NCBI GenBank assembly: GCA_023484515.1
Contig: JAMDAY010000007.1
Span: 50,179 to 114,178, forward strand
Length of the DNA: 64,000 nucleotides
Origin: Patescibacteria group bacterium
GTDB lineage: Bacteria > Patescibacteriota > Doudnabacteria > UBA920
Direction of reading: 5' to 3'
Of this stretch, positions 1,064 to 50,712 are shown one piece after another (positions within the stretch are counted from its first letter, which is position 1; every line of letters begins with the position of its first letter). Below the pieces are notes generated by a model. The model saw only the letters and a list, made by a program, of their open reading frames with translations. It had not been told where the DNA came from and searched no databases. The position numbers were made by a program, and so were the translations under genes.

Positions 1064-1112
1064 TTGATTGATATTTTATTGTTTTTCTGACGACGAATTT
1101 TTAGTCATAATT

Positions 1113-1856
1113 ATGAAGCTGGGTCAATTGCTACGAAAATTAGGTTTTTCCAATAACGAGGCCAATGTTTATTTGGCCGCTTTGGAACTGGGACTTTCCA
1201 GCGCCCAAGACATCGCGGAAAAAGCCGGAATCAAAAGAACTACCGGTTATTCCGTATTATCTTATTTGACCAATCGGGGAGTGGTAGCCAAAACCAAGAT
1301 CAAAGGCAAAAACAGATTTCTGGCCGAACCTCCCGAAAGACTTTTAACGCTAATCAATGAGCTGGAAAAAGGCATCAAGCAAGCCTTACCTGAATTGACC
1401 GCCATTTACAACAAAAAGGAAACCAAACCGAAAATTACCTTTTACGAAGGCCCGCATGCCGTGCAAAAAGTTTATGACGACACGCTGGCGGAAAAACCCC
1501 AAGAAATTTTGGAGTGGAATACCAACGCCTATTTTGAAGGCAAAACTAACGTTGACCCGGATTATATTAAAAAACGCGTGGCCTTAAACATCAGCGCACG
1601 CCGGATTGCCGGCAAAGGCAGCATGTGGGACACTAAACATAGGTATTTGGATGAAAAAGAATTATCACAAACCGCAATAATACCCAAAGAACAATTTAAC
1701 CCGCAAATCGAAGTAAATATTTACAACAATAAGATCGCCTTCCTAAATTATGCCGAAAGTATGTCGGTTATAATAGAGTCCAAGGCCATTGCCGAGGCTA
1801 TGAGGCAGGTTTACGAGCTTTCGTGGAAGGGCGCCAAGGCGGTGGAAATAAAGTAG
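1113..1856 (+). CDS. TrmB-family (sugar-specific type) HTH transcriptional regulator, paralog 1
   Basis: N-terminal LGxSxxEAxVYLAALELG winged-helix motif typical of TrmB. Start chosen at MKLGQLL (1113) rather than the ORF-track start 1068. Confidence 0.7.
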   Translation: MKLGQLLRKLGFSNNEANVYLAALELGLSSAQDIAEKAGIKRTTGYSVLSYLTNRGVVAKTKIKGKNRFLAEPPERLLTLINELEKGIKQALPELTAIYNKKETKPKITFYEGPHAVQKVYDDTLAEKPQEILEWNTNAYFEGKTNVDPDYIKKRVALNISARRIAGKGSMWDTKHRYLDEKELSQTAIIPKEQFNPQIEVNIYNNKIAFLNYAESMSVIIESKAIAEAMRQVYELSWKGAKAVEIK

Positions 1857-6441: not shown

Positions 6442-6499
6442 TTTTGCCCCCAACAAAAGTTAGTATTATAGTTTTTAACGGCCGAAAATAATTATGATA

Positions 6500-7018
6500 C
6501 TATTTTAAATTAAACTTTTTCCTTAAATCCGTATCATTATCCATTTCTTCTACCTTAATTATCCTGATAAAATCAATCAACTTTGTCTCCTGTAAATATT
6601 TTATTGCCTCTCTGTTTAAGGGATAGGGGTTAATGTAAACACTTGCTTGTAGTTTATTGTAGCCATTTTTCTTTAACAGCCATCTAAGTAAGTTGCGCTT
6701 TGCCTTACTTTCCTCAGGGATATCAAACACAACTATCCTCCACTTTCCATCCCAAACGGATGGCTTTTTCATTACTGCCTTTTTCAGCAAAATTTCCAGT
6801 TGCCCTTTTTTTGTGCACTTAATGAATTTTGTATTGTTCTTTTTGACAATTTCTATTAACCCCTGCCTTTCCATTTGCCATACAGAGCTGCAAAATTGCC
6901 GTCGTTTCATTTCCTTAAGCCTCTTGGCAAAATGATACATAGATTCATAAGGACGGGGATATAATTGCGGCTGGCCAGTTAAGGCCTCAAGTAATAAATC
7001 TACAAAACTTGCAAGCAT
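6500..7018 (-). CDS. PaaX-like winged-helix regulator (wHTH plus PaaX_C-like WRIVVFDIPE...LQASVY segment)
   Basis: Architecture and the W..W.VV.FD.PE...R..L.......G...LQ.SVY pattern recalled from PaaX-family proteins. Confidence 0.4.
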   Translation of the reverse strand: MLASFVDLLLEALTGQPQLYPRPYESMYHFAKRLKEMKRRQFCSSVWQMERQGLIEIVKKNNTKFIKCTKKGQLEILLKKAVMKKPSVWDGKWRIVVFDIPEESKAKRNLLRWLLKKNGYNKLQASVYINPYPLNREAIKYLQETKLIDFIRIIKVEEMDNDTDLRKKFNLK

Positions 7019-7139
7019 AAATTAGTATATTAACGTTTTTATTTCATATTTAAAGTATTTAGCCTTTAATAATTATATCATACAATTATCCGGCCGTATA
7101 TTTTTATGATATTCTATTTTTGCTAAACAATTTACAAAA

Positions 7140-7192
7140 CAAAACCGGCAGTGTTCGCGCATAACCATCCACGCGGATTTTCTGCCGGTTTT
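7140..7192. terminator. bidirectional terminator AAAACCGGCAG...CTGCCGGTTTTT
   Basis: 11-bp stem with flanking T/A runs; closes the three-gene minus-strand cassette. Confidence 0.6.
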
Positions 7193-7196
7193 TGAT

Positions 7197-7684
7197 TCAT
7201 TCGCAATTTTTGACGGCGCTGCCCGCAGGTAGATGCAAAACAATCCCGAAAATGTCCCTGCCGGGCAGCCCAACAAGGCTTGGATGGGCAAAGCTTGTCT
7301 GGTAATAAAGCAACCAGCCCAGCCGGCCCTTAGGGACGTTAAAGATAATGTCAGCATCTTCGCCGGCAATCTCACTGAACAACCTTTGCTGCCGGGCGCC
7401 ATTGGCATCAACAAAAGTTACTTGCACCTTTCCTTCCCGATAGCAGGCACCCGCCACGTTATCGTAAAGCCTTGCTCCGGGGTTGTTGCGCCATACGGCA
7501 AATTCCATGTCTTCGGCAGAAGGAGGACTGCTCGCTTTGTAAAACACATCTCCCAAATTAACTCCTTGGGGATGCGCCTTAACGTAAGCGTCCCAGCGTC
7601 TTTTGTATTCAGTGGGCGGCAACAGCAGGGCCAACAACACCAGAGCCGCCAAAAAGCCGCCACCAACCGCCAAAATAAGTTTCA
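7197..7684 (-). CDS. hypothetical signal-anchored/secreted protein (cassette gene 3)
   Basis: Start moved to MKLILAVGG (7684), which has a GGAGGAG RBS 5 nt upstream; N-terminal hydrophobic segment; no recognisable domain. Confidence 0.5.
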
Positions 7685-7739
7685 TATCTCCTCCAAAGCT
7701 TGCATTTTCCAAATGTCCACTGGTTTTTGCGTCACCAAT

Positions 7740-8075
7740 CTACTCGCGAACGATTCGGTATTTCTCCGTTTCTTCTGCTGCTTTTAGGCTCCGCAGATTC
7801 TCTTTAGCTGCAGCTAGCGCCATCTTGACCAGATCCTCGGTCAGACGCTGCTTTAAGGCCTGCATCTCGGAATTGAAAAAATCTTTTCCGTTGTAATCGA
7901 AGCACCCGCTTCTATCTCCACTCTGCCTGTAAAACACTCCCGAGCTGGCTGCTCCCAAAACCACCCCAACGCCGCCCCATCTAACCTCAACCTCGATGCA
8001 ACGATTAAAATCTAACCATCCGAGGTTGGGATAGTTTGGCGCGTTGCAAACCCACTCCACTTTTACTTCCCACAT
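7740..8075 (-). CDS. hypothetical protein (cassette gene 2)
   Basis: GGAGG RBS 6 nt upstream of ATG; no recognisable domain. Confidence 0.5.
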   Translation of the reverse strand: MWEVKVEWVCNAPNYPNLGWLDFNRCIEVEVRWGGVGVVLGAASSGVFYRQSGDRSGCFDYNGKDFFNSEMQALKQRLTEDLVKMALAAAKENLRSLKAAEETEKYRIVRE

Positions 8076-8084
8076 ATTAGCCTC

Positions 8085-8504
8085 CTATGTTTCGATTGCT
8101 GGAGAGAATGGTATGCTTTCGCAGCCCCCCAGCACATCCTTTTCTCCATACCCGATGGACAAGCTCTCTTCACTGCGCGGATTGTAGGTATGGCTATGCC
8201 AATCACTGTGTGCAACCAACCACCTTTCCCCGTCAGGCGCAACCACAAACGTGAACCTGGCGCTGCCGGAGTAATCGCTGCTTCTCTGGCGATGATGAAC
8301 TACAAACCCCCGGTAGCCATCTGCAAAAAAAGTAAAAGGAGGAGTACCTCTTATCCACCCTTCTCCTAGACGGGTATCGCCAAGATTCCAGCGATCGACC
8401 TGCGCTAGAATCAGCCGAGCCCTTTCTTCCATCTCCGGCCAATCAACTCTCTTAGTATGGTCATTTTCAAAAACCAGGACTGTTTTAAATCCAACTGCTT
8501 TCAT
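8085..8504 (-). CDS. hypothetical protein (cassette gene 1)
   Basis: GGAGG RBS 6 nt upstream of ATG; 9-nt gap to the next gene; no recognisable domain. Confidence 0.5.
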   Translation of the reverse strand: MKAVGFKTVLVFENDHTKRVDWPEMEERARLILAQVDRWNLGDTRLGEGWIRGTPPFTFFADGYRGFVVHHRQRSSDYSGSARFTFVVAPDGERWLVAHSDWHSHTYNPRSEESLSIGYGEKDVLGGCESIPFSPAIET

Positions 8505-8618
8505 CGTTCCTCCAAAAGTGTTGAAATTTGTTACTTTTTTGGTAACAACATAATATAATCCCTTGATTAATTAAAGTAAACAATGCTACAATAAAAGTGT
8601 CATAAATAACAACACTTT

Positions 8619-9383
8619 ATGGTAATACCGGAATTATTGCAAAATTTGGGGCTTTCTGGCGAGGAAACAAGAATATATTTGGCTGCTTTGGAAATGGGGA
8701 AAAGCCTGCCTAAGCATTTGGCGGAAAAAGCCGGAGTAAAACGGCCCACGCTTTACAAGCTAATGCCGGGACTGCTGGAAAAAGGCCTGCTTTCGGAAAC
8801 CGTCATGGGCAAGCGGAGATATTTCGTGGGGGAAGACCCCGAAGTTTTGCTAAACAAGAAGCAGTCGGAAATAGACCAAATGGAAGCGCTGCTGCCCCGG
8901 CTCCGCATGTTACTGGCCACCGCCTCCCACAAACCGAAAATAATCTTTTACGAAGGGCTGGAAGGCATAAAAAAATTATATTTTGACAACTTGCGGGAAA
9001 AGCAGCCAATTTTGGAATTCGTCTCTTTGGAAAAGATTAGTCCCAAAATAGAATTCCATTCGTCTAACTATTACATCCCTCAAAGGATTAAAAGAAAAAT
9101 TCCCATAAAAATAATTATTAGCGGCGCGGCCAAATCCCATTCTATAAAGTTAAAAACCGACCCTTATGCCTTAAGGGAAATTAAACAAATTAGCGAAAAA
9201 CATTTTCCTCTGCCCTTAGACTGCTATATTTACGGCAACAACGTGTCTTTTGCCCTTTACCGCAGGGACAGCGAGCCGGTCGGAGTGATTATCAGGTCAA
9301 AAGAAATTGCCACGGCCATGAGATCGCTGTTTAATTTTGTCTGGCAAGCTGTTCCGACCGACAATTTGTCGCGCCACCACTAA
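8619..9383 (+). CDS. TrmB-family HTH transcriptional regulator, paralog 2
   Basis: Same N-terminal LGLSxxExxIYLAALEMG motif and overall length as the other two paralogs. Confidence 0.7.
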   Translation: MVIPELLQNLGLSGEETRIYLAALEMGKSLPKHLAEKAGVKRPTLYKLMPGLLEKGLLSETVMGKRRYFVGEDPEVLLNKKQSEIDQMEALLPRLRMLLATASHKPKIIFYEGLEGIKKLYFDNLREKQPILEFVSLEKISPKIEFHSSNYYIPQRIKRKIPIKIIISGAAKSHSIKLKTDPYALREIKQISEKHFPLPLDCYIYGNNVSFALYRRDSEPVGVIIRSKEIATAMRSLFNFVWQAVPTDNLSRHH

Positions 9384-29847: not shown

Positions 29848-30111
29848 TTAGGCACCAACCTCTTTAGCGATTGCCTGTTTAATCAGGGTTTGGTAAGGGA
29901 TATCCAGCCGATTGGCTTTTACTTTTAGTTCTGAAACCAGATAGCTGGGCAGACGAATGGAAATGGAGGTGGATGTGGGTTTTAGATTCGGAAAACGCGC
30001 ACGTTTAAATTTTGACCAATCCAAATATTCGGTGGAGTCATGGGTATTCCAAAACTTCGCCTCTTCGTCTTCATTTTTAAATTTAGGGATTTTTTTAAGC
30101 TTTTTTGCCAT
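29848..30111 (-). CDS. brnA: BrnA antitoxin (CopG/RHH-type, DUF4415 family)
   Basis: EAKFWNTHDSTEY...IRLPSYLVSELKVKANRLDIPYQTLIK is typical of BrnA; overlaps the brnT 3' end by 17 nt. Confidence 0.7.
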   Translation of the reverse strand: MAKKLKKIPKFKNEDEEAKFWNTHDSTEYLDWSKFKRARFPNLKPTSTSISIRLPSYLVSELKVKANRLDIPYQTLIKQAIAKEVGA

Positions 30112-30397
30112 AATTGCTCCTTTCCTTTCTATTTGCGCTGCGCGCTGAAATTATCCTGACTTTATTATTCCTGATGGTAAAAACAATGAATAAAATTTGC
30201 CCCTTATTGTTCGGCCCTACCAGTTGATATCTCTTTTCGCCAATACTATGCCTGTCGTCAAACAAGACGGCATAATCGCTTAAAAAAGGCTGTTCGGCTT
30301 CCACGGGCATTATGTTATGACGGAGCCGAACCTTGTTACTGTTATGTTCGTCCCATTCAAACTGCAAAGGCTCGGGCAAATCTATAATGTTTTGCAT
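30095..30397 (-). CDS. brnT: BrnT ribonuclease toxin (DUF497 family)
   Basis: FEWDEHNSNKVRLRH N-terminal signature of BrnT; toxin-first operon order. Confidence 0.7.
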   Translation of the reverse strand: MQNIIDLPEPLQFEWDEHNSNKVRLRHNIMPVEAEQPFLSDYAVLFDDRHSIGEKRYQLVGPNNKGQILFIVFTIRNNKVRIISARSANRKERSNYGKKA

Positions 30398-30680
30398 ATT
30401 AATATTGTATATGAAATTCGCTACATTGTCAAGTTTTGGCGAAAAAAGTGTGTCAATTTGTGTTAGTTCGTGTCAGTGGAAATAGTGTATAGCGGGGTGG
30501 GGTAAAAGGTGGTATAATTAAGGCAAACAATTAAACCACAAAAGAAACCAAATGAAATCTATAACTACCAAGCCAAGGACAGTAAATTTTCCACTGAGAC
30601 AAATAATTTGATTTCTAACATACTTGTTTGACTTTGGCCGCTTTTCCGTCTATTATAGAACTACGGTTAATTTTAAAACT

Positions 30681-49578: not shown

Positions 49579-50712
49579 ATGAACAACAAAATTGAAAATG
49601 CTTCTCCGGATGCAAAAAGAGAATTGGAAATACCCAAACTTATACTGGCAGGCATGCCAGACTACTTTATTGCACGGGAAGGAAAAGAGGCTTGGAAAGA
49701 TGACAGTCATCCAGTTTATTTAATGATGAATTTGGATACCAAATGCAGTTGCAATTGTATAAAGTGTGCTTTACATGGCCGTAAGCGCGAGCCGGGCCCT
49801 CCTTTGACTACTCAAGAACGGACAGCTTTTCTAGACCAAAATACAGCTACGCTAGGCTTAAAAGAACTAGTAATAATCGGTTACGGCGAACCGACCGAAG
49901 ATTTTGGCAAAGTAGAACCCCTCATTCGCGAAGCTCATAGCCAAGGCATGGGAACAGTAATCTTTTCAAACCTGGGATTCCTTACTAAAGAACAAGCCGA
50001 ATTTTTTAGAGACCATGAAGTTACATTAATTGTAAGCTTAGATGCGGTTGATGAAAATACCTATAACTTCCTGATTGATCCCAATAAAAGAAAGGGTATG
50101 GACCTTAATAAAGTCTTAAAAAATCTTGAATTATTAAAAGAAACATACAGACAAAATAATAAAACTATAAACGAGCAAAAAGTGGTTAGGCTGGGAATTA
50201 ACACCACTGTCTGTAAACAAAATGTTGATCATTTAGAAGAAATAAAGCAACTGGTTGGAAGAGATATGATGTACATAGCCAACCCTCCAATGCGTGAAGG
50301 CAATTTAACGCAAAAAGATCGGTGGAACATCTTAGTTGGAAATCAATATGATTATTTGGCCAAGAGAGCGGCTGAGGTTTCCCAAACAGGGGGTCACAGC
50401 TCTTTGGCCGAAGGTTCTTGCAGTTATTTTAATCGGGGACTTTCCGTAGATTCCGATGGAGAACTTTTAACTTGTGGTTATGCGGTAAATACTGCCCACT
50501 CCATTGGAAATATTAAAGATAACTTATCGCCGCAACAGTTAAAGAACATTTACCGGAAAAACCGTGAAGTCTTTGAAAAATACAGGCAGGAGACCGGAGA
50601 CGAGCAGGCGACTTGCCCATTAAGGAGTAAAAATTTTGAGGATTATTGCCGAAGAATAGCCTCGGCACATAGCAAAAGGCAAAAAGAAAATCCATTTAAT
50701 ATTTTAGAATAA
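49579..50712 (+). CDS. radical SAM enzyme with C-terminal SPASM/twitch-like Cys-rich domain
   Basis: CxxxCxxC motif CSCNCIKC, GYGEPT glycine-rich SAM motif, C-terminal cysteines (CSYF...LTCGY...ATCPL...DYC). Confidence 0.8.
   Translation: MNNKIENASPDAKRELEIPKLILAGMPDYFIAREGKEAWKDDSHPVYLMMNLDTKCSCNCIKCALHGRKREPGPPLTTQERTAFLDQNTATLGLKELVIIGYGEPTEDFGKVEPLIREAHSQGMGTVIFSNLGFLTKEQAEFFRDHEVTLIVSLDAVDENTYNFLIDPNKRKGMDLNKVLKNLELLKETYRQNNKTINEQKVVRLGINTTVCKQNVDHLEEIKQLVGRDMMYIANPPMREGNLTQKDRWNILVGNQYDYLAKRAAEVSQTGGHSSLAEGSCSYFNRGLSVDSDGELLTCGYAVNTAHSIGNIKDNLSPQQLKNIYRKNREVFEKYRQETGDEQATCPLRSKNFEDYCRRIASAHSKRQKENPFNILE

Follow-up and report, generated by a model that had tools for sequence, protein, structure and literature searches.

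Do three small genes that lie back to back with a TrmB-family regulator in a patescibacterial genome make up a module of their own, or do they occupy a place that belongs to the regulator? The question is raised by a 64,000-nucleotide (nt) stretch of contig JAMDAY010000007.1 (assembly GCA_023484515.1, Patescibacteria group bacterium; positions 50,179 to 114,178), called the window here, in which the open reading frames (ORFs) ORF1, ORF2, and ORF3 form a compact minus-strand cassette divergent from the regulator gene. A first-pass annotation, made from the letters of the sequence, took the cassette for a self-contained acquired module with a toxin/immunity, defense, or host-interaction function. 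We lean, with modest confidence, toward a different answer: the three-gene operon is probably the current cargo of a hypervariable slot that stands back to back with a conserved TrmB regulator in a clade of Patescibacteria and is wired to that regulator. The genomes of Patescibacteria are tiny, and for most genes specific to their lineages no role is known; to our knowledge, few regulator-target links have been proposed for these bacteria, and our literature search found no paper linking TrmB regulators and Patescibacteria.

The case for a slot comes from a comparison of loci that carry the regulator. These were gathered by scanning genome and metagenome collections and from contigs that encode homologues of ORF2 and ORF3, which we name families A and B, respectively. 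Orthologues of the TrmB gene, with 57 to 73% identity to the window gene, are present in at least 14 metagenomic or genomic loci, and at every locus with upstream sequence the orthologue is divergent from a short run of small genes whose identity changes with the locus (Table 1). The nearest relatives share ∼70 to 74% nucleotide identity with the window in both flanks and have other genes instead of all three ORFs at the syntenic position. In blastn comparisons with these relatives, homology stops at position 6442, the end of a diacylglycerol-kinase-like gene, and resumes at 8507 (L005) or 8573 (L003). The replaced segment is therefore 6443 to 8506, which comprises a PaaX-like gene in addition to ORF1 to ORF3; in L003, the same interval holds DUF5674, an uncharacterized gene, BrnT/BrnA, family D, and family C.

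The regulator-proximal boundary of the slot is sharp. In each of two clades, loci whose first cargo gene differs (ORF1 or family C in alignment A7; family A, E, or B in alignment A6) nevertheless share the leader as far as the Shine-Dalgarno sequence, and homology breaks off at the start codon. Families A and B, both very rare, with 2 to 5 known members each, recur in the slot singly or in changing combinations: B occurs without A or ORF1 (L006 and L015), and A occurs without B (L010, L012, and L016). A short contig that lacks a TrmB gene (L009) carries a family D gene and then a family B gene. Family E proteins are ∼70 amino acids (aa) long. Ten cargo proteins from related loci had no Pfam match above threshold, and a kinship between families A and D was rejected (hhalign probability, 0.3%).

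The constant side of the locus consists of the regulator and a divergent control region. The N terminus of the regulator (residues 7 to 68) matches the TrmB helix-turn-helix model of Pfam (PF01978; 38.3 bits versus a cut-off of 25.6; E = 1.2e-9). Its C-terminal ∼170 aa have no Pfam match, including to a sugar-binding effector domain; the NCBIfam TrmB and TrmBL1 models give 17 to 25 bits against cut-offs of 600 to 650, and a profile of the orthogroup has no sequence match in the PDB. Alignment of the intergenic sequences of 14 loci (A5) revealed a conserved block, GTAAATAATGyTAtAAT, which coincides with the predicted extended −10 element of TrmB and, on the opposite strand, with the predicted −35 element of the cassette, TTTACT. 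Between this −10 box and the TrmB ATG, AAGTGTCA-N9-10-CACTT is invariant in 14/14 loci; it forms the palindrome O1, which is perfect in L012 (AAGTGTCA-N7-TGACACTT). The O1 palindrome occurs once in the 64-kb window, where 0 occurrences are expected by chance, and once per TrmB locus, always at the same place and nowhere else in the fetched loci. We disfavor an RNA element at this site and read O1 as a putative protein operator: the arms are fixed in sequence instead of covarying, the predicted RNA fold is weak, at −4.5 kcal/mol (z = −1.5), and Rfam has no match between 6300 and 9600.

A putative second operator, O2, lies on the cargo side. It is a degenerate inverted copy of O1: positions 8515 to 8540 and 8593 to 8618 form a 26-nt inverted repeat with 77% complementarity, which places CAACACTT immediately ahead of the ORF1 Shine-Dalgarno sequence. 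L003 and L005 are alike in this respect, and L021 has a copy with one mismatch. In the second clade (L012, L015, and L016), GTGGACAAAGTGTYC is found 5 to 6 nt ahead of the cargo Shine-Dalgarno sequence. The half-site ACACTT/AAGTGT lies no more than 12 nt from the Shine-Dalgarno sequence of the first cargo gene in 6 of the 12 loci listed; the background frequency of the hexamer is 3 to 7e-4 per nt.

Two further observations concern this region and the regulator. The cassette transcript is predicted to begin, from +1 to +22, with another palindrome, at 8537 to 8557 (cassette sense, GTTGTTACCAAAAAAGTAACAA), which overlaps the left arm of O2. Its position is kept and its sequence varies (TTGTTAC/GTAACAA in the window, GGTCACC/GGTGAT in L005, and GTCATC/GATGA in L003); L021 has no clear counterpart. 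This palindrome might serve as a second operator or form a stem-loop at the 5′ end. The window also contains a second TrmB-like gene (1068 to 1856, plus strand; L001 9686 to 11971), a paralogue with 33% identity to the first, which is divergent from a radical-SAM gene and is without the AAGTGTCA...CACTT palindrome.

By their sequence features, ORF1 to ORF3 are real genes that form one operon, followed by a predicted terminator. A GGAGG Shine-Dalgarno sequence lies 4 to 5 nt ahead of all three ATGs, at 8513 to 8509 (ORF1), 8085 to 8081 (ORF2), and 7694 to 7690 (ORF3). ORF1 and ORF2 are separated by 9 nt; since the Shine-Dalgarno sequence of ORF2 overlaps with the TAG that ends ORF1 and such a gap is typical of translational coupling, ORF2 is probably coupled to ORF1. 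The gap between ORF2 and ORF3 is 54 nt when measured to the ATG that gives a 162-aa protein; an alternative start, TTG at 7712, gives 171 aa and a gap of 27 nt and has no Shine-Dalgarno sequence. The three ORFs have one reading frame in common, with TAG plus 9 nt and TAG plus 54 nt as separators, which is probably due to chance (1 in 9). We rejected the idea of one gene with read-through stops or recoding and treat the ORFs as three separate genes because each has its own GGAGG and ATG and because TAG is a normal stop here, ending 5 of the 39 long reference ORFs elsewhere in the window. Downstream, the arms of an 11-bp perfect inverted repeat (7141 to 7151 and 7182 to 7192) enclose an inner stem, with folding energies of −27 kcal/mol on the minus strand (z = −3.3) and −25.4 kcal/mol on the plus strand (z = −4.5). 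This GC-rich stem-loop is more stable than shuffled sequences and is followed by a U-run, UUUUGUUUUG, as in Rho-independent terminators.

Most of what the first-pass annotation had said about this layout held up: the three minus-strand ORFs and their sizes, the perfect GGAGG ahead of each, the strong bidirectional terminator, the AT-rich divergent promoter region shared with a TrmB paralog, the PaaX-like neighbor, and an N-terminal signal/anchor helix in ORF3. Of the gaps that it gave, 9 and 27 nt, the first is correct and the second is not, as it fits only the TTG start.

Table 1. Coordinates of the features in the window and composition of the slot and its surroundings in related loci
Feature	Position	Strand	Description
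PaaX-like gene	6500..7018	minus	172 aa; winged helix-turn-helix and Cas2-like, VapD-like PaaX_M domain
Intrinsic terminator (predicted) closing the three-gene operon	7141..7192	both	stem-loop with a T-run on each strand
ORF3	7685..7197	minus	162 aa counted from ATG; family B
ORF2	8075..7740	minus	111 aa; family A
ORF1	8504..8085	minus	139 aa; first cargo gene behind the conserved leader
Divergent control region	8505..8618	both	114 nt, 26% GC; overlapping back-to-back promoter-like sites
O2, putative second operator	8516..8536	minus	cassette sense AAGTAACAAATTTCAACACTT; abuts the ORF1 Shine-Dalgarno sequence
Cassette promoter (predicted, promoter scan)	−35 8580-8575; −10 8557-8552	minus	−35 TTTACT; −10 TATATT
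TrmB promoter (predicted, promoter scan)	−35 8563-8568; extended −10 ending 8592	plus	−35 TTGATT; extended −10 TGCTACAAT
O1, putative TrmB operator	8595..8617	plus	palindrome AAGTGTCATAAATAACAACACTT between the TrmB −10 box and ATG
TrmB-family regulator	8619..9383	plus	254 aa; N-terminal TrmB winged helix-turn-helix
Slot, window			ORF1, family A, family B
Slot, L006 and L015			family B as first gene divergent from TrmB
Slot, L010			family A
Slot, L012/L013			family A, 69-aa protein (family E), 192-aa protein
Slot, L016			family E, family A, second family A-like gene
Slot, L003 and L005			family C (102- to 107-aa membrane protein, 2 to 3 helices), then family D (173 to 203 aa)
Slot, L014 and L021			family C alone seen; contig ends there
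Slot, L017, L018, and L019			other uncharacterized proteins
Toxin-antitoxin pairs			BrnT/BrnA in L003; PIN/RHH in L018; Gp49/HTH in L012 and L019; RelB/YafQ in L017
Carbon metabolism genes, L012	4534-9122		PGK and TIM (Pfam labels); TrmB gene, cargo, and Gp49/HTH pair between tpi and pgk
Carbon metabolism genes, L018	1501-7218		glucose-6-phosphate dehydrogenase and transketolase (named by eye from sequence)
Carbon metabolism gene, L020	2563-3972		pyruvate kinase (named by eye from sequence)

In our reading, the locus has a fixed and a variable part. The fixed part comprises the TrmB gene, the two overlapping divergent promoters, the putative operator O1 at the TrmB transcription start, and the leader with its O2 copy or half-site; the variable part is everything past the start codon, where genomes differ in their mix of families A to E and of orphans like ORF1. 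A TrmB dimer would bind O1 and repress its own promoter, giving autoregulation, and would set cargo expression via O2 and the overlapping promoters; the C-terminal domain of TrmB would bind a ligand that relieves or switches this control. The cargo is thus probably under TrmB control. The cargo itself would serve accessory, fast-turnover functions, for example, host-cell or phage interaction or envelope adaptation, and not metabolism.

Several observations weigh against this reading. We infer the binding of TrmB to O1 and O2 only from sequence conservation and position, and we likewise infer co-regulation of the cargo and the roles of its proteins. O2 is degenerate, its spacing varies between 21 and 23 nt among loci, and four loci (L010, L017, L018, and L019) have no exact half-site near the cargo Shine-Dalgarno sequence. 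The TrmB loci are phylogenetically related, so that conservation of the leader is partly inheritance. The cargo proteins are without functional assignment, ORF1 is without any homologue, and the structure model of ORF3 is poor (predicted local distance difference test [pLDDT], 48) and unfit for a fold search. Finally, the 1.2 kb upstream of a family A gene in L008 contains no TrmB gene, and genes of central carbon metabolism lie near the TrmB orthologue in three loci.

The last two points are also what would be seen if the ORFs were passenger genes in an insertion hotspot and TrmB were a core regulator, perhaps of sugar metabolism, with an operator of its own and no tie to the cassette. A metabolic regulator that merely stands beside a hotspot would fit the glycolysis and pentose-phosphate genes near its orthologues in L012, L018, and L020, as well as the single occurrence of family A without an adjacent TrmB gene; unrelated accessory genes also differ here by genome (BrnT/BrnA, PIN/RHH, Gp49/HTH, RelB/YafQ, and DUF5674 in relatives and the PaaX-like gene in the window). 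This explanation survives best among the rivals, and we regard it as unlikely but with a real chance of being right. A leader that is kept up to the Shine-Dalgarno sequence while the cargo changes suggests selection on an expression platform, and in two clades an operator half-site or inverted copy abuts the cargo Shine-Dalgarno sequence. Moreover, two very rare families are repeatedly found at exactly this position, and the full palindrome, absent elsewhere from both the 64-kb window and the fetched loci, is more in keeping with local than with global regulation.

The wired slot that we favor can also be drawn in a more specific form, as an integrase-free "plug-in" slot of episymbionts, in which a ligand-sensing TrmB with its invariant operator, together with the unchanging promoter and leader, would drive whatever cargo is in place. 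Genomes would exchange this cargo from a pool of fast-evolving small soluble and membrane proteins (families A to E and orphans like ORF1), which would serve interaction with host cells or phages. We consider this form distinctly unlikely, and a host-interaction role of the cassette, which the first-pass annotation had listed, is pure speculation.

The cargo proteins were compared with 5.8 billion proteins by an indexed search and with 1.84 billion cluster representatives by an exhaustive phmmer search. The former returned self-matches only, from a metagenome-assembled genome (MAG) named "Patescibacteria group bacterium" (locus tags M1383_01360 to M1383_01370). Neither set contains a homologue of ORF1 apart from the protein itself. 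Kinship of ORF1 with any protein of the related loci was rejected, since phmmer with filters off against 1158 six-frame ORFs found nothing below E = 2.4. ORF1 is rich in Trp and His (isoelectric point, 5.8), and both ORF1 and ORF2 are soluble, mildly acidic, and without a hydrophobic helix; because they appear translationally coupled, they are probably partners. For ORF2, phmmer found four remote homologues with 31 to 38% identity, and the family A alignment shows an invariant N-terminal W-x4-P-x-YP-x-LG loop and a conserved C-terminal helix. The AlphaFold model of ORF2 is confident (pLDDT, 79.6; predicted template modeling score [pTM], 0.70) and predicts a small beta-sheet followed by a C-terminal helix of ∼30 residues. 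Its best matches in the PDB (E = 0.3; template modeling [TM] score, about 0.25) and in BFVD (E = 0.014; TM score, 0.44; an uncharacterized phage protein) were uninformative.

For ORF3, phmmer found two homologues (P0004 and P0005) with 40 to 41% identity. The protein has one N-terminal hydrophobic stretch, residues 4 to 22 (Kyte-Doolittle 19-residue mean, 2.74), predicted to be a transmembrane helix, and beyond it a domain of ∼135 aa with two invariant cysteines, C81 and C161; the family B alignment conserves a PP-x2-E-x-M motif, ACY, GWL, and the two cysteines. Because basic residues come after the helix in ORF3 and both homologues, the C-terminal domain may face the cytoplasm. The conserved residues of ORF2 look noncatalytic, which leads us to expect that the products have binding or structural functions at the membrane or close to it.

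Could the cassette nevertheless be a toxin/immunity, abortive-infection, or anti-phage module of a new type, with ORF3 as the effector and ORF1 and ORF2 as sensor or neutralizer? The locus varies between close relatives and has toxin-antitoxin pairs nearby in five of them; it is built of small, tightly coupled genes, one of which encodes a protein with a lone transmembrane helix, and the families are extremely rare and diverge fast, as in an arms race. We nonetheless hold this improbable. ORF1 to ORF3 have no match in Pfam, PHROGs, NCBIfam, or PADLOC (for PADLOC-DB 2.0, zero families at E ≤ 1), so that neither a toxin or antitoxin domain nor a known defense family is seen, and ORF1, family A, and family B have no match among PDB chains in profile and sequence searches. 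The fold searches of the ORF2 model in the PDB and BFVD found no nuclease, NTPase, or pore-former fold. No relatives turned up in blastn searches of phage and plasmid records, and IMG/VR viral contigs had no match to family A, family B, or TrmB profiles. Moreover, a type II toxin-antitoxin system would be a fixed pair, whereas the cassette has three genes, and families that combine differently from locus to locus speak against a system with three obligatory parts.

The broader claims of the first-pass annotation thus fared unequally. It was right that the proteins carry no recognizable motif and that the genes are accessory rather than housekeeping, as their replacement in the nearest relatives shows. 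The label of a toxin, immunity, or defense system found no signature in any of the collections searched, and structure searches, which it had suggested as a check, gave no informative fold for ORF2 and could not use the ORF3 model. Nor is the module self-contained: its promoter and leader belong to a conserved platform in common with the TrmB orthologue that is present in relatives with other cargo, and the triplet is not conserved as a fixed set, families A and B being found elsewhere singly or in changing company.

Base composition had been put forward as support for an acquired origin, and here only the visual impression stands. The cassette, at 50.8% GC, is indeed more GC rich than its immediate flanks (26 to 36%), but it is no outlier among the window's 39 long genes used as the reference set for composition and for a coding model: ORF1 to ORF3 have 50 to 53% GC (z = 1.0, 1.0, and 1.6, respectively, versus a mean of 46.5% and a standard deviation of 3.9), and the z-scores of their GC content at third codon positions (GC3) are −0.7, 0.4, and 0.3. 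The contrast seen by eye arises because the flanks are very AT rich (intergenic regions, 26 to 29% GC), and the real compositional outlier of the region is the PaaX-like gene, with 35.6% GC (z = −2.8). Composition as a sign of foreign origin was therefore rejected.

In a 3-periodic Markov model, the annotated frame ranks first of six for all three ORFs. Their coding scores are low-normal (z = −1.8 for ORF1, −1.6 for ORF2, and −0.5 for ORF3) and comparable to that of the PaaX-like gene, which is itself matched by Pfam. The idea that some of the ORFs, chiefly ORF1, are nonfunctional, as chance ORFs in a moderately GC-rich stretch or as decaying remnants, is scarcely credible: ORF1 has no homologue and a coding score near the 5th percentile among same-length pieces of window genes, and the opposite strand also has long ORFs (e.g., 7233 to 7787), but the antisense 184-aa ORF scores below the sense frame, each gene has a correctly spaced GGAGG and ORF1 stands directly behind the conserved leader, homologues of ORF2 and ORF3 share conserved motifs, the model of ORF2 is confident, and the same cassette sequence was assembled in two Logan sequencing runs. 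This organism or related ones are present in the Hainich groundwater wells and in the samples of runs SRR10267473 and SRR10278331.

The PaaX-like gene, although within the replaced segment, is a separate transcription unit behind the terminator and is missing from the syntenic place in L003. Its product matches Pfam PaaX_M (E = 4.7e-19), and Cas2 models, including those of PADLOC, match too. The protein resembles PaaX proper in this domain, but it is too short (full-length PaaX has about 300 aa), contains only that domain, scores 36.4 bits against a cut-off of 264.55 with the equivalog model TIGR02277, and has no phenylacetate-degradation genes nearby.

Since type II toxin-antitoxin pairs are found near the TrmB/cassette pair in five relatives, we regard the area as a zone of accessory-gene turnover. 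A BrnT/BrnA-like pair also occurs in the window, at 29866 to 30424 on the minus strand, and is 40 to 51% identical to the pair in the slot region of L003; the same accessory module is therefore found at different places in related genomes. On the far side of the cargo, a gene that looks by eye like exonuclease III (Xth) is present in L015 (3566 to 4363), L017 (2141 to 2941), and L019 (3294 to 4181) and may represent the ancestral limit of the slot on this side; the window and L003 have a diacylglycerol-kinase/YegS-like gene there instead. One contig, CAYIHW010000023.1 (15.6 kb), which carries L003 and L004, has a TrmB orthologue at both ends in inverted orientation and an EPSP-synthase-like gene twice, also inverted; it is probably a palindromic assembly artefact, of which no more than one half can be trusted. 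The spacer between ORF2 and ORF3 was considered as a decayed copy of the leader, which would have been a trace of stepwise insertion. This was rejected, as only the Shine-Dalgarno sequence aligns (p = 0.02 to 0.5 versus shuffled sequences).

The locus can be described as a regulator-linked variable accessory locus made of new protein families. With its conserved TrmB gene, its invariant 23-bp palindrome, and cargo families swapped at a boundary that is sharp to the base pair, the locus constitutes a testable regulatory unit. Should TrmB indeed control the slot, knowledge of its ligand and of the inducing conditions would reveal when the cargo proteins are needed; if the cargo genes are only passengers in a hotspot, the locus still marks accessory-gene turnover in this clade. 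The sharp break of homology at the start codon would be a useful example of accessory-gene exchange in streamlined genomes without obvious mobile-element machinery.

How does the locus compare with known systems? The nearest precedents for the regulator are archaeal: the TrmB of Pyrococcus and Thermococcus is associated with a trehalose/maltose transporter cluster, and TrmBL1/Tgr is associated with the TGM motif. As in those systems, a protein with a TrmB winged helix-turn-helix adjoins its proposed targets, and a palindrome lies over its own promoter and start region. Unlike in those systems, the regulator is found in bacteria and the promoters are sigma-70-like, the palindrome AAGTGTCA-N7-TGACACTT differs from the archaeal motifs (TACT-N-AGTA or TATCAC-N5-GTGATA), and the C-terminal domain matches no known sugar-binding TrmB domain. 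The cargo differs as well, consisting of changing small uncharacterized proteins and not of sugar transporter or glycolytic genes.

In its layout, the slot recalls the integron platform, in which a fixed promoter and leader are followed by cargo in one orientation that varies between relatives, with a homology break at the first cargo start. Unlike an integron, however, it has no adjacent integrase, no recombinase being found among the neighbors between 4610 and 11468, and it holds 1 to 3 cargo genes only. There are no attC-like repeats between or after the cargo genes and no repeated imperfect palindromes flanking them, and the comparison of the ORF2-ORF3 spacer with the leader was likewise negative. 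No tRNA, integrase, or direct-repeat boundaries were found at the slot. The likeness to the hypervariable islands of streamlined genomes extends to differing content between ∼70%-identity flanks, toxin-antitoxin neighbors, and orphan or near-orphan cargo. The locus differs from such islands in that it has no recognized defense gene, in that its composition is ordinary, and in that a dedicated, conserved regulator with its putative operator stands at its edge.

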